From positions 1 through 32,000 of the forward strand of contig CAWJMG010000003.1 in assembly GCA_963843975.1 (NCBI GenBank): DNA of 32,000 nucleotides. Direction: 5' to 3'. The position numbers and the translations under genes are program-made. The notes beneath the pieces were generated by a model. That model was not told the origin of the DNA, did not search any database, and was given only the letters and a program-made list of their open reading frames with translations. Below, piece after piece: positions 1,290-16,043 of the stretch. The DNA comes from an uncultured Actinomycetes bacterium. GTDB taxonomy: Bacteria > Actinomycetota > Actinomycetes > S36-B12 > CAIYMF01. Each line of letters begins with the position of its first letter. Positions within the stretch are counted from its first letter, which is position 1.

Positions 1290-1362
1290 GGCCCCGTTGT
1301 GTAGCGGCCTAGCACGCCGCCCTCTCAAGGCGGTAGCGCGGGTTCGAATCCCGTCGGGGCTA
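1290..1362 (+). tRNA. tRNA-Glu (anticodon CUC); its 3' portion from the anticodon loop onward is the left att repeat
   Basis: Hand-folded cloverleaf. Acceptor ggccccg/cggggct (G1-U72 wobble), D stem gtgt/gcac, anticodon stem ccgcc/ggcgg with loop ctCTCaa, T arm gcggg-ttcgaat-cccgt. CCA is not encoded. Confidence 0.9.
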
Positions 1363-1368
1363 CGTGGA
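1322..1368 (+). repeat. attL core: 47-bp direct repeat from the tRNA-Glu anticodon loop to 6 nt past the 3' end
   Basis: ctctcaaggcggtagcgcgggttcgaatcccgtcggggctacgtgga is identical to 15997-16043. Confidence 0.9.
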
Positions 1369-1402
1369 AAGGCCCAGGTCACAGACCTGGGCCTTTCGCT
1401 TT
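1368..1402 (+). terminator. Stem-loop terminator after the reconstituted tRNA-Glu (element-borne)
   Basis: aaaggcccagg-tcacaga-cctgggccttt followed by cgcttt. It has the same layout as the hairpin after the right att copy but a different sequence. Confidence 0.6.
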
Positions 1403-1416
1403 GCACTGGGTGCAAA

Positions 1417-1494
1417 TGATCTTGACCACAGATTGACCACAGACGATGTGGACAATTTCGACCCGAGGTGGCAGCAAACGGCTTGACCATCACG
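1417..1494. promoter_or_regulatory. Cluster of candidate integrase arm-type sites (TTGACCACA-like) just inside attL
   Basis: tgatcttgaccacagattgaccac (1417-1440) is matched at 23 of 24 positions by 15864-15887. There is also an inverted copy tgtggacaat (1447-1456) and a fourth copy cttgaccat (1482-1490). Confidence 0.5.
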
Positions 1495-1669
1495 TCGAGG
1501 AACGTCGTGTAAGCCAGCTACCAAGTGCTGGCTCGCCGCCGAGTCTGCCTCGGCGCCCCTCGGCCTCCGTGCTGCGAATGCAAGGCGTGGATTGCCCCGG
1601 TGGTGCCAGCGTTGAACGTTCGGTGCCAGCCGCACCCTTGCTCGGCCGCGGATGCGCGAACCGCCGAGA

Positions 1670-1894
1670 TCAGGCGGTCTCGCCGCCGCTGCTGAGTGCG
1701 GCGGGCTCGGCTTCGAGGAGGCGGCGCAGTCCGGCGGTGGGGATGCGGATGAGCTTGCCGACGCGCAGCACCGGGGTCGGGAAGCGGTCGGTGCGGACCA
1801 GGTCGTAGGCCAGCGTGCGGCCGATGCCCAGGACGGCTGCGGCGGTGGGGACGTCGATCAGAGGCGGCAGGTGGTCGAGGTCGGTGCGATCCAT
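1670..1894 (-). CDS. xis: excisionase-family helix-turn-helix DNA-binding protein (74 aa)
   Basis: This is the C-terminal 74 aa of the 1670..3067 ORF, starting at the ATG at 1894: MDRTDLDHLPPLIDVPTAAAVLGIGRTLAYDLVRTDRFPTPVLRVGKLIRIPTAGLRRLL. That is the typical Xis/MerR-like HTH_17 pattern. It lies immediately downstream of the relaxase on the same strand. Confidence 0.75.
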   Translation of the reverse strand: MDRTDLDHLPPLIDVPTAAAVLGIGRTLAYDLVRTDRFPTPVLRVGKLIRIPTAGLRRLLEAEPAALSSGGETA

Positions 1895-2025
1895 GCGTAC
1901 TCCCCGGTGCTGGTGGTGCTCGTCCAGCACGAGCACCCATCGGAAGGTGCGCGACGCGGCGCCCCGACACGCAGAAGGTCGCGAACGGTGCCGCGCTTGC
2001 CGCTGGGTTGCGTAGGCCGGCGTGG

Positions 2026-5000
2026 TCAGCGCGACGGCGGTTCGTGCCCCGCGACGGCGCGTCCCGGCCGGAGCAGCGGCAAGTCGCCCGCCAGGTCCGC
2101 GACGCGGCCTGCCGCCACGACGACGGGCTCGCGCACCGCGACGGTGGCGGGGTCGGCGGGGTCCGTGAGGAGGTTGGGGTTGCGGTAGGGCTGGGCACCT
2201 CGTCGCTGCCATCGGCTGCGCCGCTCCGCGGTCGCGGCAGTCGTTGCTGCGGCGTGCGCGGCCGTGTCCGCGTCGACCCTTGCGGTGGCCGTGGCGACAG
2301 CGGACTCGGCGCGGGCGAGGTGGCCGTCGACGATGTCGAGGTCCCGGCGTGCGGCGTGCAGGGAGGTGGTGAGGTCGCGTCGCCGGCGACGCGCCCACAC
2401 CGGCAGCTCCCCCGTCTCGAGTTCGAGGCGCACGACGTCGGCTCGGACGGTGTCGAGGCGTCGGAGCAGGTGGTCGCGGTCGGCGACGGCCCGTGCGAGG
2501 CGGGCCTGGTTGTAGCGGTGCTCCACCGGCGCCGGTGAAGCGGGTCGGGCGGCCTCGGCCGCGTCGAACCGTGCTCCGCGTGCGTGGTCGACGGCCGGGT
2601 CCAGGAGACTGTGGGCGGCGCGTTCGCGGCCGGTGGTGGCCAGGGCTCGCGTCAGCTGCTCGAGCGCATCCACCTCTGCGTGCGGTCGCTGGCTGGCGTG
2701 GTGGGGGCCGGCGTCGACATCTGCGCCGCCCGGGGTGGTGTGGAGGTGGTTCTCGTGCCGGCCGCGGGTCATGGCGACGTAGAGGTGCTCGCGGTCCAGC
2801 CCGGGGCGGGCGAGGGTGACGGCGATGTCGGTGGTGGCGCCCTGGGCGGCGTCGATGGTCGCGGCCCACCCGTACTCCGAATGCCTCGCGAGGTATGCGG
2901 CGGGCAGGTTCGTGGTGCCGCGGCCGGCGACATCCTGGACGAGCAGGCCGTCGCCGTCGGGGGTGGCGGCCAGGACGGTGAAGCGGTCGCCGTTGCGGAC
3001 CTGGTCGCCGCCGATGCGCAGGGCGGGAGTGTTCTTCTTCGTCAGGATCACGTCCCCGGCGCGCCACTCGCGGGTCTCGGGGCGGCTGCGGGTGGAGGCA
3101 GTGCGGGCGGTGACCGACAGCAGGGGCGGGCCGGTGACCTGGCCGGTGGCGATCGCGGCGGCGCGGGCTCGGGCGTTGAGGGCGGTGACGTCGGTCCAGC
3201 CGCGGGCCAGCATCAACGCATCCCGCCCGTGGGTGACGGCGTCGTGCCAGCGGTCGAACACCGCGTCGGCGGCGTCGTCCCCGTCGGCGGCGGGGTGGAT
3301 CCGGTCCTGCTCCTGGTAGGTGCGCAGGACGCTCGGGTCACCGGCGCGCAGCGCGAGCGTCGCCGCCGCCTCCCACGCGTGGGTGAAGCGGTGCAGGCCG
3401 CTGAGCTCGACCACCCGGTTCGGGACGAGGTGGGCGAGGTGCTCGAGCATCCCGCCGGGGGCGCGGATCGCCCCGATCTGGGCGGGGTCTCCGACGAGCA
3501 CGACCCGCGCCTTTGCTTCCCTAGCGCGCGCGGTGAGGGCGGCGAGGTCGGCGGTGGCGAGCATCGAGGCCTCGTCGACCAGGAGCACGTCGCCGCGGCG
3601 CAGCCGCCTCTCGTCCCGGATGCCGGGGCCGCTGTTCGTGGGTGGCTGGGTGTCGAGGGCGTTCTGCTGGGTCAGGAACCGCGCCACCGTCACCCCCGTC
3701 ACGCCGGTCGAGGCCGCGAGCTCGGAGGCGGCCCGCGCCGACGGCCCCAGCGCGAGCACGCGTTCTCCGCCCTGCGTCCAGCCGGCGACCGCCGCGCCGA
3801 GGACGGTGGTCTTCCCCGCCCCAGCCGGGGCCACCATCACCGTGACCAGGTCGCGGGAGGACACCAGCCTCACCGCGACGACCTGCTGCTCCTGCGACAG
3901 CCCCTCCCGGGCCGTCACCTGGAGAATGTTGGCGGGCAGCCGGCGGGGCGGGCGCAGCCCGTCCAGCACCGCCTCGATGACCATCGCTTCGGTGTCGACG
4001 ACCTCGCGGGAGGCGTAGCGGGCATCCGACGCCCGCGCCGTCACCCCCGGCGCATCCGCCCCCAGCGGAACAGCGCCCGCAGCAGTATCCATGAGCGCCT
4101 GCGCCGTGAGGGCCTCGACCATCGCCGCGGCCTCACGCGCATCCCGCGGCGCACCCGGGCCGGTGGCCGGGAGGCGGGCGGCCACCTGCACCGCCAGGTC
4201 CGCCGCCGACCACACCGCACCTGACCTGCCGGCCGCCGACACAGCGTCTACGAGCCACGCCTGCCCGGCGGCGAACGGCTCGCGGCCGACCTCGGCGCTT
4301 GCGTGTGCAGCCGCGGCGCCGTCGGGGTCCGTGACGGGCGCGCACGCCGTCGCGACGGAGTCGGTGACTGACTCCGTCAGGTCCCCACTCGCGTCCACCC
4401 CTGCGGCTGGCTGCTTCGGGACGTCCGCGACGGAGTCGGTGACGGAGTCCCCCACCGTCACGACGGACTCCGTCACCGCGACGCCGGTCCTCGTGACGGT
4501 GGTGACGGAGTTCGTGACGGAGTCCGCCGCGGTCGCGACGGCAGGCGTGGGAGTGCTGCCAGTGGCAGTGACGGTGCCGACAGGCCTGGTGACGGCGGTC
4601 GTGACAGTGGTGCCGTCGCTGGTGACGGTCACGGGCGAGCCGCTTCGCCCTTCGCGGGGGGTTCTGACGCCGTCGGGGCTCGCGAGGCGTGCGGACCGCT
4701 GCAGCCGCTGGGCGTCCCAGCCCAGCGCATCGGCTTGCTCCCGCCACCGGGCCCTCAGCCCGGCCTCGGGGACGGGGTGGTCCTTGGGCGGGCGGGTGGC
4801 CAGGACGGCGGTCTTGACGATCCGGGCCCGCTCCGACGGCGTGACTGGCCGCCCGAGCGCCTCCTCGGCCTGGGCGATTGTGGGGATGGCGTCGGCCATC
4901 ACCGCGGTGGTGCGGGTCGACCAGGCGGCGAGGAGCTCCTCGGGGACGCCGGCGATCTCGGCCTGCCCATGCTCGGACACCGGCCCGAAGGCGACGCCGA

Positions 5001-5641
5001 GGCGGGTGGCGAAGCTCGGTGCGCAGCGCCGCCTGGTAGAGCGCACCGGCGGCCTTCTTGTGGTGGAACACCTCGTAGCCGTCGATGGTGCGCCACACCC
5101 CGTCGGCGCAGCGGACCTTGTTCACCACCAACGCGTGCGTGTGCAGCTGCGGATCCCCGGTCCGGGACGTGGTGTGCTCGAACAGCGCCGCCGCGAACCC
5201 GGCCGTGGCGACCTGCTCGACCCCGTTGCGGCCCCGACGCGAGAACGACGCATGCGCCTCCAGGAACCCCAGCGCCACCTCCACCGCCGCCGTGTGCGCC
5301 GCCCGGACCCGAGCCGCTGTCGCGTCGTCGCCGAGCGCCCACAGCGCCGACACCGACTTCGGTGCCGAGAACGTCAGGTCGTGCCCGGTCACCGCGTCCG
5401 GACGCCACGCCCGCCCCAGCGCCGCTCCGGTGCGCGGGTGCAGGCCGCGGGCGAACAGCGCCTCCAGTTCCGCCTCCTCCACCCGCGCGCCGGATGACAG
5501 GCCGAGCTCGGGCAGGCCGGCGCCGTGCCAGCGGCCGGGCGCGTTGCCGGCCTCGGCGTAGTACTCGCACGCACCGCGGGCGACGGAGTCCTGGTAGTAC
5601 CGCCACGACGAGCGGCCGATCTTGGCACTGGACAGCACCAC
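2026..5641 (-). pseudogene. traA: TrwC/MobF-type relaxase fused to a RecD/TraA-like helicase, interrupted by a 1-nt frameshift near 5011
   Basis: The N-terminal frame (GTG start 5641 or 5638) reads VVLSSAKIGRSSWRYYQDSV ... HTTSRTGDPQLHTHALVVN, giving the catalytic YY and His-triad motifs, and runs to ...ALYQAALRTEL. The sequence continues in another frame as ATRLGVAFGPVSEHGQAEIAGVP. The helicase part has Walker A (APAGAGKTTV), Walker B (LLVDEASML), then TIDAAQGAT and VAMTRGR. Confidence 0.85.
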
Positions 5642-5734
5642 CGACCACCACCCATCATCAACCCATACGATCCGGCAAACCGTTGCAGCCCAACCGATTA
5701 CGACGATAGCAGGACGCGCGGACAATGCACATGT

Positions 5735-5750
5735 CTGCTGATCTCAGCAG
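5735..5750. promoter_or_regulatory. Perfect inverted repeat in the relaxase/RHS divergent intergenic region (candidate oriT hairpin or operator)
   Basis: ctgctga-tc-tcagcag lies in a locally low-GC non-coding stretch about 100 bp upstream of the relaxase start. Confidence 0.3.
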
Positions 5751-6005
5751 GGTTCAGCGCTATCGGAGTCGTCGTCACGGGCAGGGGCCGACGGTCGCTC
5801 GCTCCTCGGGGTCGGACGAGTCACTGGCGAGGTGTCTGGGCTCGCGCAGGTTCATGAACGCGTTGCGCCGCTCCGACTGCGCTGCGCACCGCGGACGCGG
5901 ACACATCGGCGCTCGGTAGCCCTTGCGCGTCGGTGGTCGTTGACGCGGCCGAAATCCGGGCACTACGTTCGCGAGCGCTTGAGCATCTGCAACGGGGGTT
6001 GGGCA

Positions 6006-9000
6006 GTGACCGTTCGTCGTTCGCGCGTGGTTTCCGCGCTGGGGCACTTGTCGCGGCGCGGGATGCGCGTGACGTGGGTGTCTTTGGCATCGGGTGCGCT
6101 GTGTGTGTCCCTGGTCGCCGGTATCCCCGACGCGGTCCTGGCCACCGCTCAGGCCGCTGACGCTGCGAAGGCAGTCGAAACCCCGTCACCCGCGGTGAGC
6201 GTCCCTCTCGTCGGCGCCAAGGATGTCCTGGGCGCCGACGATCGAGCGGCCGAGGCATTCCTGTCCACCAAGCGCCCAGCCCCCGTCTTCCCGGCAGCGG
6301 GTACCGCCATGGTCGAGGTGCCCGCCGCAGGCACTGCACCGGCGGATGCCGTCGGCCTTCCCGTGACCGTCGGCTTTCCCGACCCCGAACTGATCAAGAA
6401 GCTGGGGGTCGAGGACCTTCTGACCGCCGACGCTGCCGCGACGCAGGGCGAGCCGGTCAGCCGGACCGATCCGTTCACCCCACCGGCCTCCGTCAGCTCC
6501 ACGACCACGTCGACGACGGCAGATCCGCTGCCGGTACAGACCACGGTGTCAGGCAAGCCGCTGCCCGGCGACACTCCGCCCGTGGTCCCTGATCCGCCGA
6601 CAGGGCCGCCGGACATCAACGCCACCGCTCCGGCCGGGGCCGTCACGCCGTCAGCGCCGACGGCCGTTCAGGTCGAGGTGCTGGACCGCAAGACCTCCGA
6701 GGGTTTGGGGGTGTCAGGTTTCGCGTTCCTCGCCCGCCGCGCGGACAAGGGGGCCACGTCCGGCCCCGTCACCGTGACGCTGGATGCGAGCGGGTTCGCC
6801 GACGCCTACGGCGCCGGATACCTCGACAGGCTCCAGGTCCTCCGGTTCCCGGAGTGCGCGCTCGCCCCCGATGCGCTGGTCTCGGTGCCCGAATGCGGTG
6901 CCACATCGGTGATCCCCTCGGTCGTGGACCGCAAGGCCCGCACGGTCACGTTGGTGCTGCCCGCGGCCGCGGACCCCTCGGTCCCAGCAGCGCCCCTCAC
7001 GCCCGCGCCGGATCCGGTGGATCCCGGCCCGACTGCCCCGACGGCCCCGGCGACGCCGCTGGCGCCGGCCGCGCTCGACTCGACGACCATCGAACCTGCG
7101 GCGGCGACCACGGTCGACATGGCGGCCGTGGTGTCTGGGTCGTCCGGGGTGTTCGCTCTGACGGCGGGCGTCTCCAGCAGCACGGGCTCGTTCGCGGCGA
7201 CGTCGCTGAACGCGGCGGGGTCGTGGTCCGCGGGCGGGAACTCCGGCAGCATGTCGTACGACTACCCGCTGGTCCTGCCGCCGGCGACGGGCGGTGCGAC
7301 TCCGCGGGTCGCCTTGTCGTACTCGTCGGGCTCGGTGGACGGGATGACCCCGGCGAACAACACGCAGGCGTCCTGGGCCGGGCTGGGCTGGGACTTCGTC
7401 CCCGGGTTCATCGAGCGCAAGTACCTCTCGTGCAGCCTGGACGGGCATCCCGGGTACAGCGACCTGTGCTGGAAGACCTGGAACGCGACCCTGTCCCTGG
7501 GAGGGGCGTCCTATCCGCTCATCCCGGACGCGTCAGACTCCACGCACACGAACTGGTTCGTGCGGGACAACCCCGGCTACGAGGTGCACCGCGCGGTCTC
7601 CGGCCTCGCGGACCCCAACCAGTCCACGACGAAGGAGTTCTGGGTCGTCACGACCCCCGACGGCACGCAGTACACGTTCGGGCGCGGCTACGGGCAGAGC
7701 ACGACGGACCCCACGAACAGCACGTTCACGGTGCCGACGTTCTCCGACGACCCCGGCGAGCCGTCGTACTCCTCATCGGGCTGGACCGCCGGGCAGGTCA
7801 GCGCGCAGCCGTGGCGGTGGAACCTGGATCGCGTCGTCGATCCCAACGGCAACGTCACCCGGTACTACTACCTGAAGGAGAGCAACCGGTACTCCAAGCT
7901 GGGCAACAGCTCCTGGCCGATCGTGTACACCTCCGGCGGCCTGCTGGACCGCATCGAGTACGGCTCCCAGAGCGGGTCGGAGGCCAGCTTCGGTCAGGAG
8001 GTGGACTTCAACCGCCAGTACCGGTGCACCGCCCTGGACGCCAGCTGCACCGCGCCGACGAAGAACGCGACCGGCTACCCGGACGTCCCGACGGACCTGA
8101 TCTGCCCCATCTCCACGGTCTGCTCGGAGAGCTCCCCGTCGTTCTTCGACACCAAGCGCATCTCCTCGGTCACCACCCGCGCGATCAAGGACGCGGTGTG
8201 GAGGAACCTGGACACCTACACGTTCACCCACTCATGGCTGAGCCCGGCCGACTCGATCCCGCAGCTGTGGCTGAACAAGATCCAGCGCACCGGCTTCGAC
8301 GGTGCCGCCAGCAAGAACCAGCGCCCGGTCCTGTTCAACGGCGTCGCGCTGGCGAACCGCGCCGACTCGGGCGGGTCGGTGCTGCCCGCGTCGTTCTACC
8401 GCATCTCGATGGTCACGGACGAAGTCGGTGCCGAGACCTCCTTCACCTACAACCAGCCCGACCCGTGCGCGACCTTCTCCGGATGGAACGACAACGCCCA
8501 GGACTGCTACCCGGTCTACTGGACCCCGGACGGGCTGCCCAGCGGGTGGGGCGCGTTCAACAAGTGGATCCTGTCAGCCGTCTCGGTGCACGACTCGACC
8601 ACCGGCTCGCCGGACATCGTCACCACGTACACGTACAGCAACGGCGGGGCGTGGCATCACAACGACGACCCGGTCATCGACGGCACGCCGCTCACGACCT
8701 GGGACCAGTGGCGCGGCTACTCCACGGTGAAGGCGACGACCGGCTCGGGTGCCGGGCGCACGTCGGTCAAGACGCGGTACTACCGCGGCATGGACGGGGA
8801 CAAGCTCACCTCGACCACCACGAAGTCGGTGAGCGTCGTCGACGCCGACGGCACGACCACCACCGTGGACAAGGACATCCTGGCCGGCAAGGTCCGCGAG
8901 ACGCAGTCCTTCGACACGGCGAACGCCGAGATCGACGGGTCGGTCACGAGCTACACCCTCTACAACGTCAAGTTCGGGGGCACCGAGTGGCCGGACTCGG

Positions 9001-12000
9001 CCATGGTCCGCCCCACCGACTCGATGTCCCGCGAGCGGTACTACGACAGCGCGGGCGCGCAGACCCGGTTCCGGCACACGTCCACCGTGTTCGACTCCAC
9101 CTACGGCGTGCCCACGAAGGTCACCGACTTCGGCGACACCGCCTCGAGCACGGACACGACCTGCACGACGATCGACTACGTCCAGAACGCCGCGGCGTGG
9201 ATCATCGACAAGCAGGTCGAGACCACCACCGTCGACGGAGCCTGCGGCGCCGGGACCGTCGTGGGGCACACCAAGACGTACTACGACGGCGCCGCATCGA
9301 ACCTGACCGCGCCGACGGTCGGGAACGTCACGAAGTCGTTGAGCTACATCAACGGCACGGACACGACCTCGACGGTGATGGCGTACGACACGTACGGGCG
9401 CGTCGTGCGCACCAACCAGACCCTGGACGCGACGGCGACCGGCACGCCCCCGACGGGCCCGGTCGCCACCGACGGGTGGGCCACCACCCGCATCGCGTAC
9501 ACCCCGGCGTCGGGGCCCGGGTCGCCGACGCAGATCGACACCACGAACGACCTGGGCCAGGTGTCCAGCGTCAGCCCCGACGGCACCCGCGGCCTGCCGC
9601 TGTCCGAGCGCAAGGCCACCGGCACCACCACGCCGACCACGTCGTACCAGACCTCCTACGCCTACGACCCGCTCGGGCGGCTCACCGAGGTGTACCTGAA
9701 GTCCTCGACCAAGCCGTCGTACAAGTTCGCCTACTTCGATTGGAACACCGCCGGCGAGATCGCCCACGTGATAACCAGCGTGCTGACCGACGACACCGGC
9801 GCCGGGACGTACATCGACTCGGCGGACTACTACGACGGCCTGGGCCGCATCCGCGAGCACCAGGTCGAGTCCCCGGCCCAGTACACCGTCACCAAGCGGA
9901 TCATCAGCGCCACCCGGTACGACAACGAGGGCCGCGTCGCCGCCACGACGGCGGGCATCAACTCGTCGGTCGCGGTGGGCGGGTCGATGTACAACCCGGA
10001 CCCGGCCACCACGCCGTCCGAGACCCGGTACGTCTACGACGAGCAGGGACAGACCGTCTCCACGAACCTGTACTCCAGCGGCAGCTTCGAGTTCGCGACC
10101 AGCACCGCGACGTACTACGGCGACCACACGTCGGTCGTCACCCCGAAGAACGCCGCGACCGACTACGGCAAGGTCACCACCTACACCGACGTGTTCGGCA
10201 ACCCCACCTCGGTCCAGGAGGTCCTGCCCGGCTCGGTCGTGCACACGGTCGACTACGGCTACGACGCGCTGCACCGGCTCACCTCTGTCGCCACCAAGGC
10301 GGCCGCCGGCGCGCCCACGACGACGGCCTCGACCAGCTACGACCGCCTCGGGCGGGTCACCGGCAGCAGCGACCCGGACGCCGGATCCACCGCGAACACC
10401 TACGACTTCGGCGGGCGCCTGCTGGTCTCGGCCACCGCGGGCCTGCGGACCGTCACGACCTCCTACGACTCCCTCGGGCGGCCCAAGACCCGTACCTCGG
10501 CCGTAGCCGGGGCCGGCAGCAGCAGCAACACCTGGACCTACGACGCCGCGTTCCCGGGCTCGCTGGACGCCCAGTCAACCGTCGCCTACGCCAAGACGGG
10601 CGCCGCGGGGAACCCGGTCGTCGCGTCCGGGCTGCTCGCCACACCCGCCGACCGCACCTACACCGTCGCGTACAGCAACTACGACTCGCTGCAGCGCCCC
10701 CAGACCACGACCTACACCCTGCCCATCAACGAGGGCGCCCTGGGCCGCAGCTACGTCTTCGGCACCAGTTGGGACAAGGCCGGACGGGTGTCGTCGGTCG
10801 CCTCGCCCGCGGTCGGGCCGCTGCCGGCCGAGACGATCTCGTACGCGTACGACGCCAACGGGTACCCGACCACCGTCACCGGCACATACACCGCGACGAC
10901 GGCGTACACGACCCCGTACGTGCAGAACCTGAGCTACACCCCGACCGGTCAGCTTCAGACCGCGTCCCTCGGATCGGCGACCGGCGCCACGAACCTGGAC
11001 ACGACGGTCGCGGTCAACTACGGCTACGCCACCGACACGCTCTGGCTGAACCACACCGACGTCAAGATCGGCGCCGCAGGGAACGGCCTGTACCTGGCCA
11101 ACCAGGACATCACCTACGACTACGCGGGTCTCCCGACCGAGATCACCGACTCCGCGCCCGGCGTCGGCCAGACCGAGTGCTACCGCTACGACACCCAGCA
11201 GCGCCTGACCGCGTACTACACGCAGTCGGCCGCCCTGTGCGCCACCTCCGGCACGGACGCCTCGGTCGTCAACAATGCGAACGTCACATCGACGGCCGGT
11301 CCCGACGGGTACGCCGCCCTCTATACCGTCGACTACCTCGGCCAGCTCACCGGCCTCACCGAGCGCCGTCCCGCCACCAAGACCGCGACCCAGGCCACCG
11401 CGATCGTCAGCAGTCTGACGCGCGGAGGCAGCCAGCCGCACGCTGTGACCGCCGTCGCCCGAACGATCGACGGCCTTGCCGCCCCGGGCCAGACCTACGT
11501 CTACGACGGCACCGGCCGCCAGACCACGAGGACCCTGCCGGCGAACAGCCGCACTCTCGGCGACATCGCCCACGGCGGCACCTCGAACCTCACCTACGAC
11601 GGGAACGGGCGCTGGCTGTCCTCCACGGACTCCGACCCCGCCGTCCCGGCGACCGGCGTCCGCACCACCGGCTACATCTACGACGCCAACGGCACCCTGC
11701 TGGCCCGTCACGACGACGACGCTGGCGACGACCTCGCCGCTACCGGCGCCCGCCCGGGCGGGCAGCGCACTCTCTGGCTAGGCACGGGCGGATCGGCCGG
11801 CATCGGCGCCACCGGGATGGCCGGCACGGGCGGGCTGCAGATCCAGACAACCCGCAAGCCCGGAGCCACCCCGACCACGGCCGGCACCGCCAGCGCCGTC
11901 GACCCTGCCCAGCAACTGCTGACCGTGTCGCGAGCCATCGTGGCCCCCGTTCTCGCCAACGGGGCGCCGCTGCAGGTGGCCACCCACACGGCCAGTGCGC

Positions 12001-13367
12001 TGCTGTCGGCCTCCACCGCGAGCGGCGTCGTCACCCAGGCGGCCACGCCTGCCACCGGCAGGATCTGGTTCACCGTCGGCGACGCCCACGCCTCCCTCGG
12101 CGGCGCCGGCACCCCGGGCATCACCGTCGCAGGCAATGGGGCGAACACGGACGCTGCTTCACCCCAATCCCAGATGGTCACTGTCGCCGGAGCCAGCATC
12201 GCCGCCTGGCCCTCCGGGGCCTCAGGCGCAAGCGCCACCGTCGCCGGGACAGTCGGCATCCGGCGCACAACGCCGTACGGCGCCGACCGCACAGCACCCG
12301 CCACCGCGGCACCGCTGACAGGCACGATCGGAGCCACGGGTACGGCCAACACCAAGACCAACACTGCCGGCGGGATCGGCGCGCTCGGCTTCCTCAACGC
12401 GTCGGAGACCACCAACGGTGCCGAGGATGGACCCGTCCTGCCCGGCGCCGCGACGCTCGCCGGCAGCGGCTACGCGACCACCGGACTCGTTCAACTCGGC
12501 GCGCGCGGCTACGACCCAGCCCTGGGAGTCTTCACAGCGCCAGACCCACTCTCTAACCCGCTCAACCCCTCCGACGCCGGGTCCTACACCTACGCCAACT
12601 CCCGGGTTGGCATCTCCACCGATCCGACCGGGCTGCGTCCGCTGGAATGCACGGGCTCGTGCAACACCAACTACCACAAGTCCGTCAACAAGGGCCGTGA
12701 GCAGCGCAAGGAGTCGGAGGATGCCTCAGGTGGTGCTCAGGCTGCGCGCCATTTCAAGCTTCCTGTTGAGGACCAGGTCCAGAACGTCGAGCCGCAGGAA
12801 GGTCTCTCTGCCTGGCAATGGGCGGGAATCATCCTCGTTGCGGTCGTTGTCGTAGTCGTCGTTGTCGTCGCCTGCAATGCCTTCTGTGCGGCTCTAGGAG
12901 CGGCCGCATTTGAGGGCCTTGTTGCGGCCCAAACCACTGCCGTAGGTGGTGCGGCCATCTCCGCAGCCACACTGGGGAGCAAGGTCGCCGTGGACAGTTT
13001 TGGCGGGCAAGCTTCGGTTGCTGGAGCTGGTGCTGCCGCCCTCCGAACCACTGCCGCACAAGGCGCCGCCGACGATTGGCCAATCATCAGTGGGATCGTT
13101 CGAGACGCGACGAAGGGCAAGGGGAACTATGGACTTGGGTCTGGGACTGCATCCCAGGCTGAACGGGCAGGACAGGCCTGGGTTGGTGAGGGGCACAGAG
13201 TGGCCAGCGACGCCAAGACGCTAATCAGCCTGGACGGACTACGCCAGTTCCGGCCACCGAGTTTCAAGCCGAGTCTGGACTCCTGGCAGGCGAATTTTGA
13301 GCGGCGGTGGACCCCCGGAGGTCAGTGGCAGGGCAACGGTCACCTCGACGTAACGGACGTCTCGTGA
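6006..13367 (+). CDS. Secreted RHS/YD-repeat polymorphic toxin, WapA-like, with an SpvB/TcB-like N-terminal region and a variable C-terminal toxin module (about 2450 aa)
   Basis: The start is GTG 6006 (gggggt RBS) or ATG 6063. Signal peptide: MRVTWVSLASGALCVSLVAGIPDAVLATAQA/AD. SpvB-like motif: SMSYDYPLVLPPATGGATPRVALSYSSGSVDG...GLGWDF. There are about 15 YD repeats, for example YAYDPLGRLTEV, YYDGLGRIREH, YGYDALHRLTSV and YVYDGTGRQTT. RHS core end: RGYDPALGVFTAPDPL...YANSRVGISTDPTGL. Confidence 0.93.
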   Translation: MTVRRSRVVSALGHLSRRGMRVTWVSLASGALCVSLVAGIPDAVLATAQAADAAKAVETPSPAVSVPLVGAKDVLGADDRAAEAFLSTKRPAPVFPAAGTAMVEVPAAGTAPADAVGLPVTVGFPDPELIKKLGVEDLLTADAAATQGEPVSRTDPFTPPASVSSTTTSTTADPLPVQTTVSGKPLPGDTPPVVPDPPTGPPDINATAPAGAVTPSAPTAVQVEVLDRKTSEGLGVSGFAFLARRADKGATSGPVTVTLDASGFADAYGAGYLDRLQVLRFPECALAPDALVSVPECGATSVIPSVVDRKARTVTLVLPAAADPSVPAAPLTPAPDPVDPGPTAPTAPATPLAPAALDSTTIEPAAATTVDMAAVVSGSSGVFALTAGVSSSTGSFAATSLNAAGSWSAGGNSGSMSYDYPLVLPPATGGATPRVALSYSSGSVDGMTPANNTQASWAGLGWDFVPGFIERKYLSCSLDGHPGYSDLCWKTWNATLSLGGASYPLIPDASDSTHTNWFVRDNPGYEVHRAVSGLADPNQSTTKEFWVVTTPDGTQYTFGRGYGQSTTDPTNSTFTVPTFSDDPGEPSYSSSGWTAGQVSAQPWRWNLDRVVDPNGNVTRYYYLKESNRYSKLGNSSWPIVYTSGGLLDRIEYGSQSGSEASFGQEVDFNRQYRCTALDASCTAPTKNATGYPDVPTDLICPISTVCSESSPSFFDTKRISSVTTRAIKDAVWRNLDTYTFTHSWLSPADSIPQLWLNKIQRTGFDGAASKNQRPVLFNGVALANRADSGGSVLPASFYRISMVTDEVGAETSFTYNQPDPCATFSGWNDNAQDCYPVYWTPDGLPSGWGAFNKWILSAVSVHDSTTGSPDIVTTYTYSNGGAWHHNDDPVIDGTPLTTWDQWRGYSTVKATTGSGAGRTSVKTRYYRGMDGDKLTSTTTKSVSVVDADGTTTTVDKDILAGKVRETQSFDTANAEIDGSVTSYTLYNVKFGGTEWPDSAMVRPTDSMSRERYYDSAGAQTRFRHTSTVFDSTYGVPTKVTDFGDTASSTDTTCTTIDYVQNAAAWIIDKQVETTTVDGACGAGTVVGHTKTYYDGAASNLTAPTVGNVTKSLSYINGTDTTSTVMAYDTYGRVVRTNQTLDATATGTPPTGPVATDGWATTRIAYTPASGPGSPTQIDTTNDLGQVSSVSPDGTRGLPLSERKATGTTTPTTSYQTSYAYDPLGRLTEVYLKSSTKPSYKFAYFDWNTAGEIAHVITSVLTDDTGAGTYIDSADYYDGLGRIREHQVESPAQYTVTKRIISATRYDNEGRVAATTAGINSSVAVGGSMYNPDPATTPSETRYVYDEQGQTVSTNLYSSGSFEFATSTATYYGDHTSVVTPKNAATDYGKVTTYTDVFGNPTSVQEVLPGSVVHTVDYGYDALHRLTSVATKAAAGAPTTTASTSYDRLGRVTGSSDPDAGSTANTYDFGGRLLVSATAGLRTVTTSYDSLGRPKTRTSAVAGAGSSSNTWTYDAAFPGSLDAQSTVAYAKTGAAGNPVVASGLLATPADRTYTVAYSNYDSLQRPQTTTYTLPINEGALGRSYVFGTSWDKAGRVSSVASPAVGPLPAETISYAYDANGYPTTVTGTYTATTAYTTPYVQNLSYTPTGQLQTASLGSATGATNLDTTVAVNYGYATDTLWLNHTDVKIGAAGNGLYLANQDITYDYAGLPTEITDSAPGVGQTECYRYDTQQRLTAYYTQSAALCATSGTDASVVNNANVTSTAGPDGYAALYTVDYLGQLTGLTERRPATKTATQATAIVSSLTRGGSQPHAVTAVARTIDGLAAPGQTYVYDGTGRQTTRTLPANSRTLGDIAHGGTSNLTYDGNGRWLSSTDSDPAVPATGVRTTGYIYDANGTLLARHDDDAGDDLAATGARPGGQRTLWLGTGGSAGIGATGMAGTGGLQIQTTRKPGATPTTAGTASAVDPAQQLLTVSRAIVAPVLANGAPLQVATHTASALLSASTASGVVTQAATPATGRIWFTVGDAHASLGGAGTPGITVAGNGANTDAASPQSQMVTVAGASIAAWPSGASGASATVAGTVGIRRTTPYGADRTAPATAAPLTGTIGATGTANTKTNTAGGIGALGFLNASETTNGAEDGPVLPGAATLAGSGYATTGLVQLGARGYDPALGVFTAPDPLSNPLNPSDAGSYTYANSRVGISTDPTGLRPLECTGSCNTNYHKSVNKGREQRKESEDASGGAQAARHFKLPVEDQVQNVEPQEGLSAWQWAGIILVAVVVVVVVVVACNAFCAALGAAAFEGLVAAQTTAVGGAAISAATLGSKVAVDSFGGQASVAGAGAAALRTTAAQGAADDWPIISGIVRDATKGKGNYGLGSGTASQAERAGQAWVGEGHRVASDAKTLISLDGLRQFRPPSFKPSLDSWQANFERRWTPGGQWQGNGHLDVTDVS
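12636..13364 (+). other. C-terminal toxin (CT) module of the RHS protein after DPTGL: charged linker, hydrophobic poly-Val/Gly-Ala segment, and a terminal domain of about 110 aa from an unrecognised family
   Basis: GC falls to about 60% and A/T-ending codons (gtt, gta, aat, tgt, cta, gga, ttt, caa, act, agt) appear exactly after gat ccg acc ggg ctg (12621-12635). Hydrophobic segment: WAGIILVAVVVVVVVVVACNAFCAALGAAAFEGLVAA. Terminal domain: GNYGLGSGTASQAERAGQAWVGEGH...DGLRQFRPPSFKP...QANFERRW...NGHLDV. Confidence 0.7.
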
Positions 13368-13717
13368 AAGCCAAGGTGCGTCGTCTCCACAGTCCTGACG
13401 CTGACCTCGCTACGTTTGTTCCGGCCGATCCGAGCGACTTCGGAGTATTGCTCCAGATAATGGCGGGCCCGGCCGACAAGCCCGGCGAGGAGTCCTTCGA
13501 CGTCGTGGTGTGCACTCCACGCTGGCTAGGTCGCTGGATCGAGGAGAACGGTCCGACGGTCGGACGCCACTACCTGGTCGTGACCGAATACGACGAGCCG
13601 CGGATCAGGGCCTTCCTCACGGAAGCGGTGGAGTCTCCAGAAGCCGAGACCTGGCCGGAACTGGCGCTGCAAATCGGTCGGGTGGGGAAGTGGGAGTTCG
13701 AGGACTATCGACCCTGA
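13364..13717 (+). CDS. Putative cognate immunity protein (117 aa), possibly Imm8-like
   Basis: The GTG start overlaps the RHS stop (GTGA, 13364-13367). Protein: VKAKVRRLHSPDADLATFVPADPSDFGVLLQIMAGPADKPGEESFDVVVCTPRWL...WEFEDYRP. It is small, acidic and cytoplasmic-looking. GC is lower than the host. From memory, the FxxxVCTPxWL pattern resembles Pfam Imm8; this is unverified. Confidence 0.7.
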   Translation: MKAKVRRLHSPDADLATFVPADPSDFGVLLQIMAGPADKPGEESFDVVVCTPRWLGRWIEENGPTVGRHYLVVTEYDEPRIRAFLTEAVESPEAETWPELALQIGRVGKWEFEDYRP

Positions 13718-14000
13718 CCGTTTCCGGCGGCTCGAGAGGGGGCGGGTGAGGCGCGCGCAAGTCCAGGCCGCAGGTAAGGATGGCGAGGCTGGCGTGCGAA
13801 AACACTCTTCGGCGACTGGGGCTCTGTGACCGCCAGGTATCGACCACCCTGCCCGCGTCACCTCGTAGTGGGACGAGGTCCCGCGCACGACCTCGGGCTC
13901 GATGTCGCAACTGAGTGCTGACTGGCCTCACATTCGAGGCTCTGGTCGGCATCCGCGACGCTCGGGGGCTGTAGTGCCCAGCCGAGAAGGGAGGCGCACG

Positions 14001-14453
14001 ATGAGTGAGTACGATCGGATACGACTCGGCCGCCAAATTCTGGACGAAGCCCTTCAATCGCTCGCCATGCCGGTCGCAGCCCTGAATCCGGATTTCGAAT
14101 TGAGGTCAGCGAGTCCAGGGGTGCGACTGTATGCCCTTCTGCTCAAGCCGGGCGTCGCCCCATTCAGCTTTCACTTCGGGCACGAGTTGGACGTTTGGGT
14201 TGGTCCGTTCTCTGAACTCGTTGTGTTGGATGTTGCCGAGCTGCAACCGTCCGATTTGGTTGAACGCGTTCGGGCTCTGTTGGTGAGCGAGGTGCGATAT
14301 GTGCGCTCGGGGAAGACGCATCGATTGCGTCTCCAGGTTCCGGGTGGCCAGCCTTGGGTGGACTTGAAAGTTCGTAGTGTGAGCGAAAGTTCTCTGCTTC
14401 CCTACTACGAGGCGTACGCAGGTCGACGCCTCGACGAGTCAGGTCCGACGTAG
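14001..14453 (+). CDS. Hypothetical protein (150 aa); candidate orphan immunity protein
   Basis: ATG at 14001 is preceded by a strong RBS gaagggagg (13985-13993). GC is about 58-60% against about 72% background. I recognise no family. Its position downstream of an RHS toxin-immunity pair is typical of orphan immunity genes. Confidence 0.55.
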   Translation: MSEYDRIRLGRQILDEALQSLAMPVAALNPDFELRSASPGVRLYALLLKPGVAPFSFHFGHELDVWVGPFSELVVLDVAELQPSDLVERVRALLVSEVRYVRSGKTHRLRLQVPGGQPWVDLKVRSVSESSLLPYYEAYAGRRLDESGPT

Positions 14454-14649
14454 CCGCTGAGGCAACTGCCAGGGCCGGAGAAGGCCCGGCGACAGCTGGG
14501 CCGCAAGCCCACTGACTTGACCCGTCAGGTGGACGCACCACCGGTTGCCCGGCGCCCCGATGGGATGGCTGCTGATTCCGCCGATTGCCTGCCACCGTCC
14601 AACGGATGGACGTCGTGGCGCATGGCAAGCATCGGCACCTACATTGCGC

Positions 14650-15846
14650 TCACTTGCCATTCTGCGACGCAGTCCGGTGAGGAACGTCGCGAATGCCTGG
14701 CCGTTCTCGGCTGGCCAGCATGTATAGCTCCATCTTGCTCCGCCCCTCCTCGAAGCGCTCTCGCATGAGGTGCGTGTAGATCTCCGCCGTCAATGTCGGG
14801 GACTTGTGCCCGAGCCGCTGCTGCACTTCGAAGATCGTCAGGCCGGCATCGAACATGAGCGATGCCGCCGTGTGCCGAAGCGTTAGCCAAGTGACTCGTC
14901 GCCCCTCCAGGCCGGCGCGCACCACGGCTTTACGCAGGACGTCCCTGGAGAAGGTTCCGCGCAGCACGTTGGTTTCGCGGTTGCTCGTGAACACGAAGTC
15001 TTCGCGTGCGGCGTTCGGTCGATACTCCTCGAGGTGCGCCAGAAGGCTGTCCATGACCAAGCCCGGCACGGGGACGGTGCGCGAATCCTCCGTCTTGGAC
15101 ATCGCTTCCGAGAAAGTCGTGGAGCCGTTCTGGTTGACGACGACTCTGCCGAAAGTGAGCTCCTTGCGGAGCGGGTTGATGTCACATACCCGCAAGCCGA
15201 TGGCTTCGTTCCAGCGAGGGCCGAGCCAGGCGCCCATGAACACAAGCGCCTCGTAGCGACCGTTGGTCTTCAGCGCGGCGTAACGCGGATCGGGGTCGAC
15301 AATCGCCGCCACCAAGCGGTCGACCTCTTGCGCAGTCAAGACGTCGTCGAAGTTCTTACGAAGGCTGGGCAGCTTGGGGAGGGCGATGTCGATGCACGGG
15401 TCGTCGATGATGCGGTCCTTCACCGCTCGGCGCAGTGGACCGCGCAGAAGTCCGTAGCAGGCGCGCACCGACTGCGGCCCCATGCTCCGCGCGAGCTGAG
15501 CGACCCAGTCGTCGATGTCCGAGGGTCTTATGTCGCAGATGGGCCAGTCGCCCCAGTGGGGCAGCACGTGCTTCACGGCGCGCTGGTCGTCGGTGTAGCG
15601 CCGGCTGGCGGATATCTGGCGCGCCGCAGCCCAGGGGGCGTAGTAGTCGGCGAAGCGGACCTCGCGCTTCTCGCGAGGGACGAAGCGTCCGCGGCGCAAC
15701 TCCATCTCAACCTCGGCCTTGCGGTCGAGAGCCGATTCGGGCGGTCGGCGCTGGGAGCCGCCGCGGAACCGCTCGGTGCGCTCGCTGCCGTCGCGCTCGC
15801 GGTAGCGCAGGTCCCAGCCGCCTGACCGGAAGCGGAGACTGGCCAC
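14650..15846 (-). CDS. int: Tyrosine recombinase / phage-type integrase
   Basis: VASLRFRSGGWDLRYRERDGSERTERF N-terminal arm-binding-type domain. Catalytic region: AWLGPRWNEAIGLRVCDI, TLRHTAASLMFDAG, QQRLGHKSPTLTAEIYTHL (R..HxxR..Y). The preferred start is GTG 15846 behind the RBS aagggagga. Alternatives are GTG 15876 or the ORF start at 15963. Confidence 0.9.
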   Translation of the reverse strand: MASLRFRSGGWDLRYRERDGSERTERFRGGSQRRPPESALDRKAEVEMELRRGRFVPREKREVRFADYYAPWAAARQISASRRYTDDQRAVKHVLPHWGDWPICDIRPSDIDDWVAQLARSMGPQSVRACYGLLRGPLRRAVKDRIIDDPCIDIALPKLPSLRKNFDDVLTAQEVDRLVAAIVDPDPRYAALKTNGRYEALVFMGAWLGPRWNEAIGLRVCDINPLRKELTFGRVVVNQNGSTTFSEAMSKTEDSRTVPVPGLVMDSLLAHLEEYRPNAAREDFVFTSNRETNVLRGTFSRDVLRKAVVRAGLEGRRVTWLTLRHTAASLMFDAGLTIFEVQQRLGHKSPTLTAEIYTHLMRERFEEGRSKMELYMLASRERPGIRDVPHRTASQNGK

Positions 15847-15863
15847 GGCTCCTCCCTTGAAGT

Positions 15864-15887
15864 TGATCTTGACCACATATTGACCAC
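15864..15887. promoter_or_regulatory. Candidate arm-type integrase sites in the int promoter / 5' region
   Basis: tgatcttgaccacatattgaccac differs at one base from 1417-1440 at the other end of the element. Confidence 0.5.
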
Positions 15888-15996
15888 GGAAGCGCCGACA
15901 TGAGCCGATAGGACGCGGCAGGAGCCGACAGTAAAAGCCCAGGTCAGAGGCCCATTCTCGCACTTCCGACGGATCCCGTGAAGGGGCTGGAATGCG

Positions 15997-16043
15997 CTCT
16001 CAAGGCGGTAGCGCGGGTTCGAATCCCGTCGGGGCTACGTGGA
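15997..16043 (+). repeat. attR core: orphan 3' half of tRNA-Glu (displaced original copy)
   Basis: Identical to 1322-1368. The upstream bases (aatgcg) do not form the 5' half of a tRNA. Confidence 0.9.

Follow-up and report, generated by a model that had tools for sequence, protein, structure and literature searches.

The subject of this analysis is a polymorphic toxin gene of the RHS/YD-repeat type (6063..13367, + strand) in a 32,000-nt stretch of DNA from an uncultured Actinomycetes bacterium (assembly GCA_963843975.1, contig CAWJMG010000003.1, positions 1 to 32,000), hereafter called the window. The 243-residue C-terminal tip of its product ends in a domain that is strongly indicated, rather than proven, to be of the Ntox7 type, and the gene that follows encodes an immunity protein of the Imm8 family. 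This toxin-immunity pair is ordinary, being one more RHS carrier of a large computationally defined family. Only one feature sets this tip apart, a lone membrane-grade helix that precedes the toxin domain and is not conserved. With moderate confidence, we interpret the tip as an RHS-encapsulated, self-cleaved cargo in which an Ntox7-type enzyme would be neutralized by the Imm8 antidote; the helix may aid membrane entry.

The toxin domain (13053..13364, + strand; tip residues 140 to 243; ADDWPIISGIVRDATKGKGNYGLGSGT ... DGLRQFRPPSFKP ... QANFE ... NGHLDV) was delimited by its homologues, its invariant residues, and AlphaFold2 (AF2) modeling. When the tip was used as a query, 51 homologous proteins were retrieved with E values down to 2.6e-47, each aligning solely to the last ~100 amino acids (aa), and the best identity over the toxin domain in the searched collections was 76%. 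When 1.84 billion cluster representatives were searched exhaustively with phmmer, 931 matched at E <= 1e-3 and 618 at E <= 1e-10. The domain was always located at the extreme C-terminus of host proteins of 97 to 2730 aa, and the N-terminal carriers were RHS, WXG100_2/T7SS_signal, PT-HINT, or plain Sec signal peptides. Such varied carriers before one C-terminal domain are what marks out the tip of a polymorphic toxin. A genome scan gave 80 loci with the domain in at least eight phyla; it was found in Actinomycetota and in alpha-, beta-, gamma-, and deltaproteobacteria, as well as in Bacteroidota, Chloroflexota, Acidobacteriota, Planctomycetota, Gemmatimonadota, and Verrucomicrobiota. Although the family is large, it has no Pfam model: Pfam and NCBIfam searches with the tip produced sub-threshold noise only (LptF at E = 0.097 and DUF6480), and neither the tip nor the family profile retrieved anything relevant in sequence searches of the PDB.

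In domain numbering, A19, G24, N25, G27, G29, R64, R67, P69, Q79, and N81 are invariant in the family. The most conserved block is D-G-L-R-Q-F-R-P-P, followed by the invariant Q79 and N81 (QANFE), and N95-G96-H97 is near-invariant, with N95 at least 90% conserved. Ntox7 is described in the relevant passages of Zhang et al. (2012; PMC3482391) as a predicted metal-independent RNase of the BECR fold with the signature "DGx+xhR, N". The same passages list RHS, type VII secretion system (T7SS), signal-peptide (type II secretion system [T2SS]), and TcdB/TcaC-type carriers from many phyla, and Imm8 is named there as the predominant immunity protein of Ntox7. The signature is present here as D61-G62-L63-R64-Q65-F66-R67, with G62 and L63 at least 90% conserved. 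Thus, the domain was assigned to the Ntox7 type because the signature fits exactly and Imm8 is the usual partner. A preceding sequence-only reading of the window had called the terminal domain unrecognized, a description not supported in view of the published signature, the Imm8 partner, and the hundreds of related cluster representatives.

Tox-HNH-EHHH, which carries the signature [ED]H, H, H on an HNH fold, is also tabulated with Imm8 in the part of PMC3482391 that covers it. This identity was rejected since the present family has one conserved His (H97) and Tox-EHHH needs three. No HNH/EHHH match in Pfam was detected at E <= 1 in this protein or in 50 family members. No experimental study of an Ntox7 or Imm8 member, be it a tested activity or a solved structure, came up in a literature search.

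For the last 104 aa, AF2 (50-sequence alignment) predicted an alpha+beta fold with a predicted local distance difference test score (pLDDT) of 93.4 and a predicted template modeling score (pTM) of 0.85. The predicted elements are a helix at 6-21, a strand at 24-31, a helix at 33-44, and strands at 64-72, 77-85, and 92-100. In this model R64/R67, Q79/N81, and H97 sit on the three adjacent C-terminal strands, which is where the active site of a RelE/colicin-type metal-independent RNase would lie. In the Ntox7 description of PMC3482391, the BECR fold consists of a helical segment at the N-terminus and, after it, a meander of four strands. Foldseek with the AF2 model of the toxin domain found no PDB neighbor, and the BECR/RNase assignment therefore rests on the 2012 prediction, without independent confirmation.

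A short actinobacterial subfamily of 144 to 214 aa was also observed (proteins P0001, P0005, P0008, P0014, and P0049; loci L015 and L035). In its members, a conserved linker (RVGA...IGAGQRLG...TGVAAKTADDWP) connects a Sec signal peptide with the same toxin domain, and these proteins appear to be small forms of the toxin that are secreted freely.

The Imm8 gene (13364..13717, + strand) starts with a GTG that overlaps the TGA of the toxin gene (GTGA), and through this overlap it is translationally coupled to the toxin. Its product matched Pfam PF15586 at E = 2.8e-34 with 118.1 bits against a cutoff of 27, over profile positions 1 to 114 of 114. An Imm8 C-terminal motif, WEa, is described in the corresponding part of PMC3482391; here the protein ends in ...GKWEFEDYRP, in which WEF is the W-E-aromatic motif of the family. 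An exact look-up of the protein found no identical sequence on record. An Imm8 open reading frame (ORF) lay directly 3' of the toxin domain in 74 of the 80 genome loci, as counted with a hidden Markov model built from four Imm8 sequences, and precomputed Pfam annotation placed Imm8 beside the domain in three of four gene-called contigs. The Imm8 protein encoded here is soluble and has no hydrophobic stretch, which fits the proposal of the sequence-only reading that a cytoplasm-acting enzyme forms the end of the tip.

Polyimmunity arrays against this toxin type, with more than one Imm8 paralogue per locus, were also seen: four paralogues in tandem in Paraburkholderia fungorum (L080, 6258-8099), three in L063 (1622-6625), and two in L018. 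In two other loci, a short Ntox7-type/Imm8 module stands right after a different toxin-immunity pair, namely, an RHS-barnase toxin with Barstar in L003 (GCA_040960315.1) and a Colicin-DNase/WHH toxin with SUKH in L004; these second modules are typical orphan cassette arrays.

The reading frame of the carrier gene is open from 5832 and reaches its stop at 13365-13367. The probable start is the ATG at 6063, which gives the N-terminus MRVTWVSLASGALCVSLVAGIPDAVLATAQA, signal-peptide-like as judged by eye. Translation from the open frame yields 2511 aa, and the RHS toxin proper has ~2,430 aa. SpvB matched the protein weakly (Pfam, E = 8.9e-5), RHS_repeat matched in four stretches (E = 0.0033, under the gathering score for the whole protein), and YD_repeat_2x of NCBIfam reached 21.2 bits, above its cutoff of 15.8. 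Kitasatospora and Nonomuraea have RHS homologues that matched at E = 2e-26. The end of the RHS-associated core (12474..12635, + strand; RGYDPALGVFTAPDP ... YTYANSRVGISTDPTGL) was located by TIGR03696 and by direct reading of the sequence: the TIGR03696 match stops exactly at DPTGL, and both RGYDPALGVFTAPDP and STDPTGL, the stretch to be compared with the RHS self-cleavage motif PxxxxDPxGL, are readable in the translation. The codons gat ccg acc ggg ctg occupy 12621-12635, just where the sequence-only reading had put this boundary, and tblastn alignments to many RHS ends terminate there. The 243-aa tip (12636-13364) that it had reported follows directly, and every peptide quoted from it was found.

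The tip differs in composition from the core. The GC content falls from 70.3% in the core to 63.1% in the tip, with 60.5% in the first 243 nt of the latter. GC at third codon positions (GC3) was 0.923 in the core versus 0.663 in the tip. Codons ending in A or T numbered 174 of 2268 in the core against 82 of 243 in the tip (Fisher p = 6.5e-27), and no 243-codon window of the core had a GC3 below 0.778. A fit with two change points gave GC3 values of 0.970 up to 11273, 0.873 over 11274-12719, and 0.633 from 12720; forcing the second change point to 12636 cost only 4.4 log-likelihood units. A break in GC and codon usage at DPTGL had been claimed as sharp. The break is real, but it is not perfectly sharp, with the best fit placing it at 12720. 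The low-GC3 block extends beyond the tip into the Imm8 gene (0.746) and a 150-aa ORF (14001..14453; 0.629). For comparison, in the same gene-by-gene survey GC3 was 0.946 in the RHS core, 0.911 in the relaxase gene, 0.94 to 0.97 in flanking host genes, and an intermediate 0.817 in the integrase gene. Since low GC3 runs across the tip, the Imm8 gene, and the 150-aa ORF, a foreign cassette of ~1.8 kb starting at or just past DPTGL is well supported. GC content, GC3, and change-point analysis thus bear out the earlier description of the tip as an RHS C-terminal payload of foreign composition.

The final ~450 codons of the core (11274-12635, + strand) are themselves already lower in GC3, at 0.873 versus 0.970 upstream. 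Within this tract, the last YD repeats and the core domain are separated by a long low-complexity stretch rich in Thr, Ala, and Gly; the dip may stem from relaxed constraint or from an older tract of recombination.

Upstream of the toxin domain, the tip can be divided into three parts. Residues 1 to 58 (12636..12809, + strand) form a charged, hydrophilic linker (Kyte-Doolittle -2.5 to -0.1) that is predicted to be disordered, with no secondary structure in AF2 and pLDDT values of 44 to 50. Residues 59 to 111 (12810..12968, + strand) form a long predicted helix, and within it residues 59 to 89 (nt 12810-12902) are of membrane-grade hydrophobicity. Residues 112 to 139 (12969..13052, + strand) make up an Ala/Gly-rich flexible segment with a Kyte-Doolittle value of ~0.3 to 0.9 and an AF2 pLDDT below 50 over 112-128. 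The Kyte-Doolittle maximum of 3.09 falls at tip residues ~59-89, and this is the sole stretch with negative insertion energy in the 2511-aa translation (additive Hessa dG minimum, -3.61). The reported run of nine consecutive Val residues was confirmed at tip residues 70 to 78 (nt 12843-12869); it is encoded by an imperfect (GTC)9.3 array (12843..12870, + strand; Tandem Repeats Finder: period 3, 76% matches).

A frameshift artefact as the source of the segment was rejected as unlikely, because all tblastn matches fall in the ORF's own frame. In addition, a 28-nt direct repeat (12929-12956 and 13043-13070; 75% identity, 114 nt apart) was noticed in the Ala/Gly-rich part of the tip. It encodes AQTTAVGGAA and RTTAAQGAA and may be a small internal duplication or chance.

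The sequence-only reading had described this region as a transmembrane hairpin with zipper-like AxxxA/GxxxG spacing, and neither feature was supported. Kyte-Doolittle and Hessa analyses show one membrane-grade stretch, the supposed second arm of the hairpin having a Hessa dG of +4 to +8. AF2 on the full tip gave a single unbroken helix over 59-111 (pLDDT 93 across 61-80), disorder over 112-132, and a helix over 133-160 that continues into the toxin domain. Small-xxx-small pairs numbered 20 against 17.4 +/- 2.3 expected from shuffles, and triples 12 against 7.6 +/- 2.5 (p ~0.07); the spacing is explained by the Ala/Gly-rich composition.

These results bear directly on the idea of a pore-forming activity, also raised before. 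In the version weighed here, the hydrophobic part would itself form pores or depolarize membranes, in a Tse5-like or glycine-zipper-like manner, and the tip would have two toxic activities. Toxins of that kind build their toxic unit from several membrane-spanning or zipper helices, usually alongside a membrane-associated immunity protein. A membrane-grade helix followed by a small-residue-rich stretch is what such a pore former might look like, and the pore-forming RHS cargo of Tse5 is a precedent (PMC10684867). However, there is a single helix and no hairpin, the spacing does not exceed composition, and the segment shows no conservation and belongs to no family. Furthermore, the sole recognizable immunity gene encodes the soluble Imm8, which tracks the enzyme domain. 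By eye, the translation of the 150-aa ORF shows no obvious membrane segment, and the locus lacks a membrane immunity protein. With one helix, no conservation, and no membrane immunity protein, the pore alternative is weak, and we give it a very slight probability.

The two-part reading, in which a membrane-active segment precedes an enzyme, remains the most plausible. From what is known of the family, the RHS shell would enclose the 243-aa tip, which would be cut off at the DPTGL motif present here. After the cargo exits the shell, the helix may partition into the target membrane and help the enzyme into the cytoplasm. There, the Ntox7-type domain is predicted to kill, probably by RNA cleavage, and siblings and the producer would be protected by the soluble Imm8, whose linkage to the toxin is observed and whose binding is presumed. 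Precedents exist for both components of this proposal: the RHS shell of Tse5 carries and delivers a hydrophobic pore-forming cargo (PMC10684867), and a hydrophobic segment of CyaA moves the catalytic domain across a membrane (as summarized in PMC13460014). By analogy with the hydrophobic Tse5 cargo, the shell would shield the helix until release. Within this scheme, the role of the helix as an entry aid is put forward tentatively, and we rate it only slightly above tolerated filler.

Several observations weigh against the favored account. The assignment to Ntox7 was made from the signature and the Imm8 partner, and none of the 80 toxin-domain loci is from Yersinia, the source of the type member y1701 (Yersinia pestis, gi 22125595). 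The Rhs_assc_core match (TIGR03696, aa 2215-2268, E = 4.8e-7) scored 30.2 bits, below the curated cutoff of 32.5. The nearest RHS cores are only ~30% identical, so replacement of the tip is not demonstrable by comparing orthologous RHS genes. Tip residues 1 to 140 had zero homologues at E <= 0.01 among 5.8 billion proteins; thus, neither selection on the helix nor a function for the hydrophobic segment can be inferred from sequence. An internal segment of negative insertion energy was found in only 3 of 129 family representatives (~2%), one of them with a mis-called start. Finally, if export proceeds by Sec, to which the N-terminus points, the helix should lodge in the membrane of the producer, in conflict with simple secretion.

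Long tblastn alignments (P0081, L044, and P0044) had appeared to extend homology across the linker, but this candidate was dropped as the alignments were gone with composition-adjusted BLASTP.

The lack of homologues also invites a simpler explanation, namely, that the helix and its flanks are non-functional, arising as a recombination junction or as a linker lengthened by (GTC)n slippage, and are tolerated since the cargo sits unfolded in the shell, so that only the Ntox7-type domain matters. BLASTP of the tip linker against all family pre-toxin regions reached a best E of only 0.06. Pre-toxin linkers across the family are extremely diverse, being PT-HINT, hydrophilic, or G/A-rich, and the poly-Val run is an imperfect triplet array. 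The GC3 of the hydrophobic segment, 0.57, is the lowest in the gene, with an atypical pattern of GC1 > GC2 ~ GC3. The accounting of the small-xxx-small spacing by composition points the same way. Nevertheless, ~30 residues at a Kyte-Doolittle value of 3.1 far exceed ordinary Ala/Gly/Pro-rich linkers and are unique in the 2,511 aa. Such a segment is costly in an exported protein, so purging would be expected if it were useless. Similar layouts also arose independently: the RHS loci of Microbacterium (L010) and Cellulomonas (L012) show the same order of linker, hydrophobic stretch, A/G-rich segment, and toxin, and they are non-homologous. A purely passive segment is less likely than not, yet nearly as likely as an entry aid. 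As for recognized pretoxin domains, Pfam found no PT-TG, PT-HINT, or PT-VENN between carrier and toxin, the only match being DUF6480 at E = 0.028 (14.7 bits vs a cutoff of 25).

A very hydrophobic helix in a Sec-exported protein should act as a stop-transfer anchor by Hessa-type reasoning. This difficulty leads to shielding, another export route, or a secretion-arrest reading. In the last case, Sec export would arrest at the helix of the producer's own protein, leaving the shell tethered outside and the enzyme in the producer cytoplasm bound to Imm8 until a trigger, in a loosely CdiA-like manner. The signal-peptide-like N-terminus is in line with such a design, as are the insertion energy of the helix (-3.6, the only negative value predicted), the cytoplasmic and translationally coupled immunity protein, and the 58-aa disordered linker that separates the cleavage site from the helix. 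However, known RHS/Tc structures, that of Tse5 among them, enclose the cargo in a shut shell, which is incompatible with this topology, and once DPTGL is cleaved the anchor no longer retains the shell. The signal peptide was judged by eye only, the trait occurs in only ~2% of the family, and we know of no precedent for a stop-transfer design in RHS proteins. A producer-side anchor is therefore improbable. More broadly, that the helix is either a functional, self-contained membrane-entry device or, alternatively, a programmed stop-transfer/secretion-arrest element is in our view unlikely.

The short, stand-alone relatives described above suggest another origin for the helix, as the fossil signal peptide of a secreted toxin gene captured whole by recombination. 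Many of them (P0001, P0005, P0008, P0014, and P0049) consist of a Sec signal, a linker of 50 to 100 aa, and the same domain, and the distance from the hydrophobic stretch to ADDWP is similar (~55-85 aa). Against this, a profile of the stand-alone signal plus linker scored -0.3 bits on the tip, a value equaled by 34 of 300 shuffles. Moreover, the residues that precede the stretch are acidic rather than basic, ~30 residues are too long for an h-region, and there is no AxA cleavage site. This origin is very improbable, and the two-part cargo with a possible entry helix is retained as the preferred reading.

The toxin locus is located within an integrated element. The left end, attL (1322..1368, + strand), is the 3' part of a tRNA-Glu gene (1290-1363, ARAGORN) and forms one copy of a 47-bp exact direct repeat. 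The second copy of this tRNA-Glu 3' end, attR (15997..16043, + strand), matches it perfectly. Together, the repeats delimit an element of 14,722 bp (1322-16043). Between them lie a TrwC/AAA_30 relaxase gene (2026-5046, - strand), the RHS toxin gene, the Imm8 gene, the 150-aa ORF, and a tyrosine recombinase (integrase) gene (14650..15963, - strand; Pfam Phage_integrase, E = 2e-17) that adjoins attR. The repeated tRNA-Glu end and the integrase beside attR indicate that the RHS toxin-immunity locus is cargo of an integrative element in tRNA-Glu; the element is probably mobilizable. The 150-aa ORF (MSEYDRIRLGRQILDEALQSL...; + strand) begins 284 nt past the Imm8 gene, inside the same low-GC3 block, and has the lowest GC3 in the region; it matched no Pfam or NCBIfam family and may represent an additional gene of the cassette or an orphan immunity gene. 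The interval from Imm8 to the integrase showed neither promoter-like nor terminator-like sites. A plasmid search gave no match for the toxin locus. Beyond position 16000, GC content is back above 0.71, and leuC at 21.1 to 23.1 kb (~79% identical to Streptomyces) marks a chromosomal actinomycete context.

The Ntox7-type/Imm8 family, widespread yet without a Pfam model, can now be given a structure predicted with confidence, to which the PDB shows no detectable neighbor, and a defined pair with the candidate catalytic residues R64, R67, Q79, N81, and H97 eases first biochemistry. How polymorphic toxins cross the membrane of a Gram-positive (monoderm) target is an unsolved question. A cargo with its own membrane-grade helix just upstream of the enzyme is a simple construct for testing self-translocation, although the helix, lacking conservation, could just as well mean nothing. 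If the helix does aid entry, a Sec-exported Gram-positive RHS toxin would move a soluble RNase across the target membrane without a dedicated receptor domain, and a few actinobacterial RHS toxins, including those of L010 and L012, would each have evolved such a helix on their own. In that event, the tip would offer a simple model for the entry of RHS and other polymorphic toxins into monoderm bacteria.

Among known systems, WapA of the Gram-positive Bacillus subtilis is an RHS protein that bears a signal peptide, ends in an RNase tip, and has its immunity gene alongside. The present protein resembles it as a Gram-positive RHS protein with a signal-peptide-like N-terminus, a predicted RNase tip, and an adjacent immunity gene. 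In TcB-TcC of the ABC toxins, an SpvB-like N-terminal region accompanies a YD shell, inside which a hypervariable tip lies unfolded, and the SpvB match found here is a point of similarity. The present locus differs in that no TcA-like partner gene is located nearby. From both systems the present protein is separated by its core, the closest RHS cores having the low identity given above. To our knowledge, neither WapA nor TcC tips contain a membrane-grade helix.

The bipartite CdiA-CT is comparable in that a variable tip combines a delivery part with a C-terminal nuclease, predicted in the present case, next to a cognate immunity gene. In CdiA, the entry domains come after a VENN motif on a type V secretion system (T5SS) filament; they are soluble bundles of helices and work through specific inner-membrane proteins. 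In contrast, neither VENN nor a recognizable entry domain was found here by Pfam or homology search. Another parallel may be drawn with type VI secretion system (T6SS) RHS/PAAR effectors. The N-terminal transmembrane helices of the RhsA/Rhs1/Tse6 class are proposed, in the passages of PMC10684867 and PMC12881460 that cite them, to enter the target inner membrane and carry the soluble toxin to the cytoplasm. The likeness lies in a hydrophobic helix proposed to bring a soluble toxin domain into the target cytoplasm. However, the helices of those effectors are N-terminal, outside the shell, paired or more numerous, and in need of Eag chaperones, whereas the present protein, Gram-positive and apparently Sec-type, has a single helix within the C-terminal cargo behind the cleavage motif.

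Tse5 of Pseudomonas aeruginosa (PMC10684867) shares a self-cleaving RHS shell and a strongly hydrophobic element within the cleaved C-terminal cargo, features that here are read from the sequence. Tse5 is delivered by the T6SS and its cargo is a pore former; in the present locus no T6SS parts (PAAR or VgrG) were seen, and one hydrophobic helix is followed by a soluble enzyme domain and a soluble immunity protein. The closest counterparts are the Ntox7/Imm8 pairs themselves as covered in PMC3482391. As in those pairs, DGx+xhR is followed by a conserved N, the domain is C-terminal on RHS, T7SS, signal-peptide, and SpvB/TcdB-type carriers, the phyletic spread is wide, and an Imm8 with the WEa motif (WEF here) stands immediately downstream. 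The published family is described only computationally, and the present copy adds a membrane-grade helix upstream of the domain.

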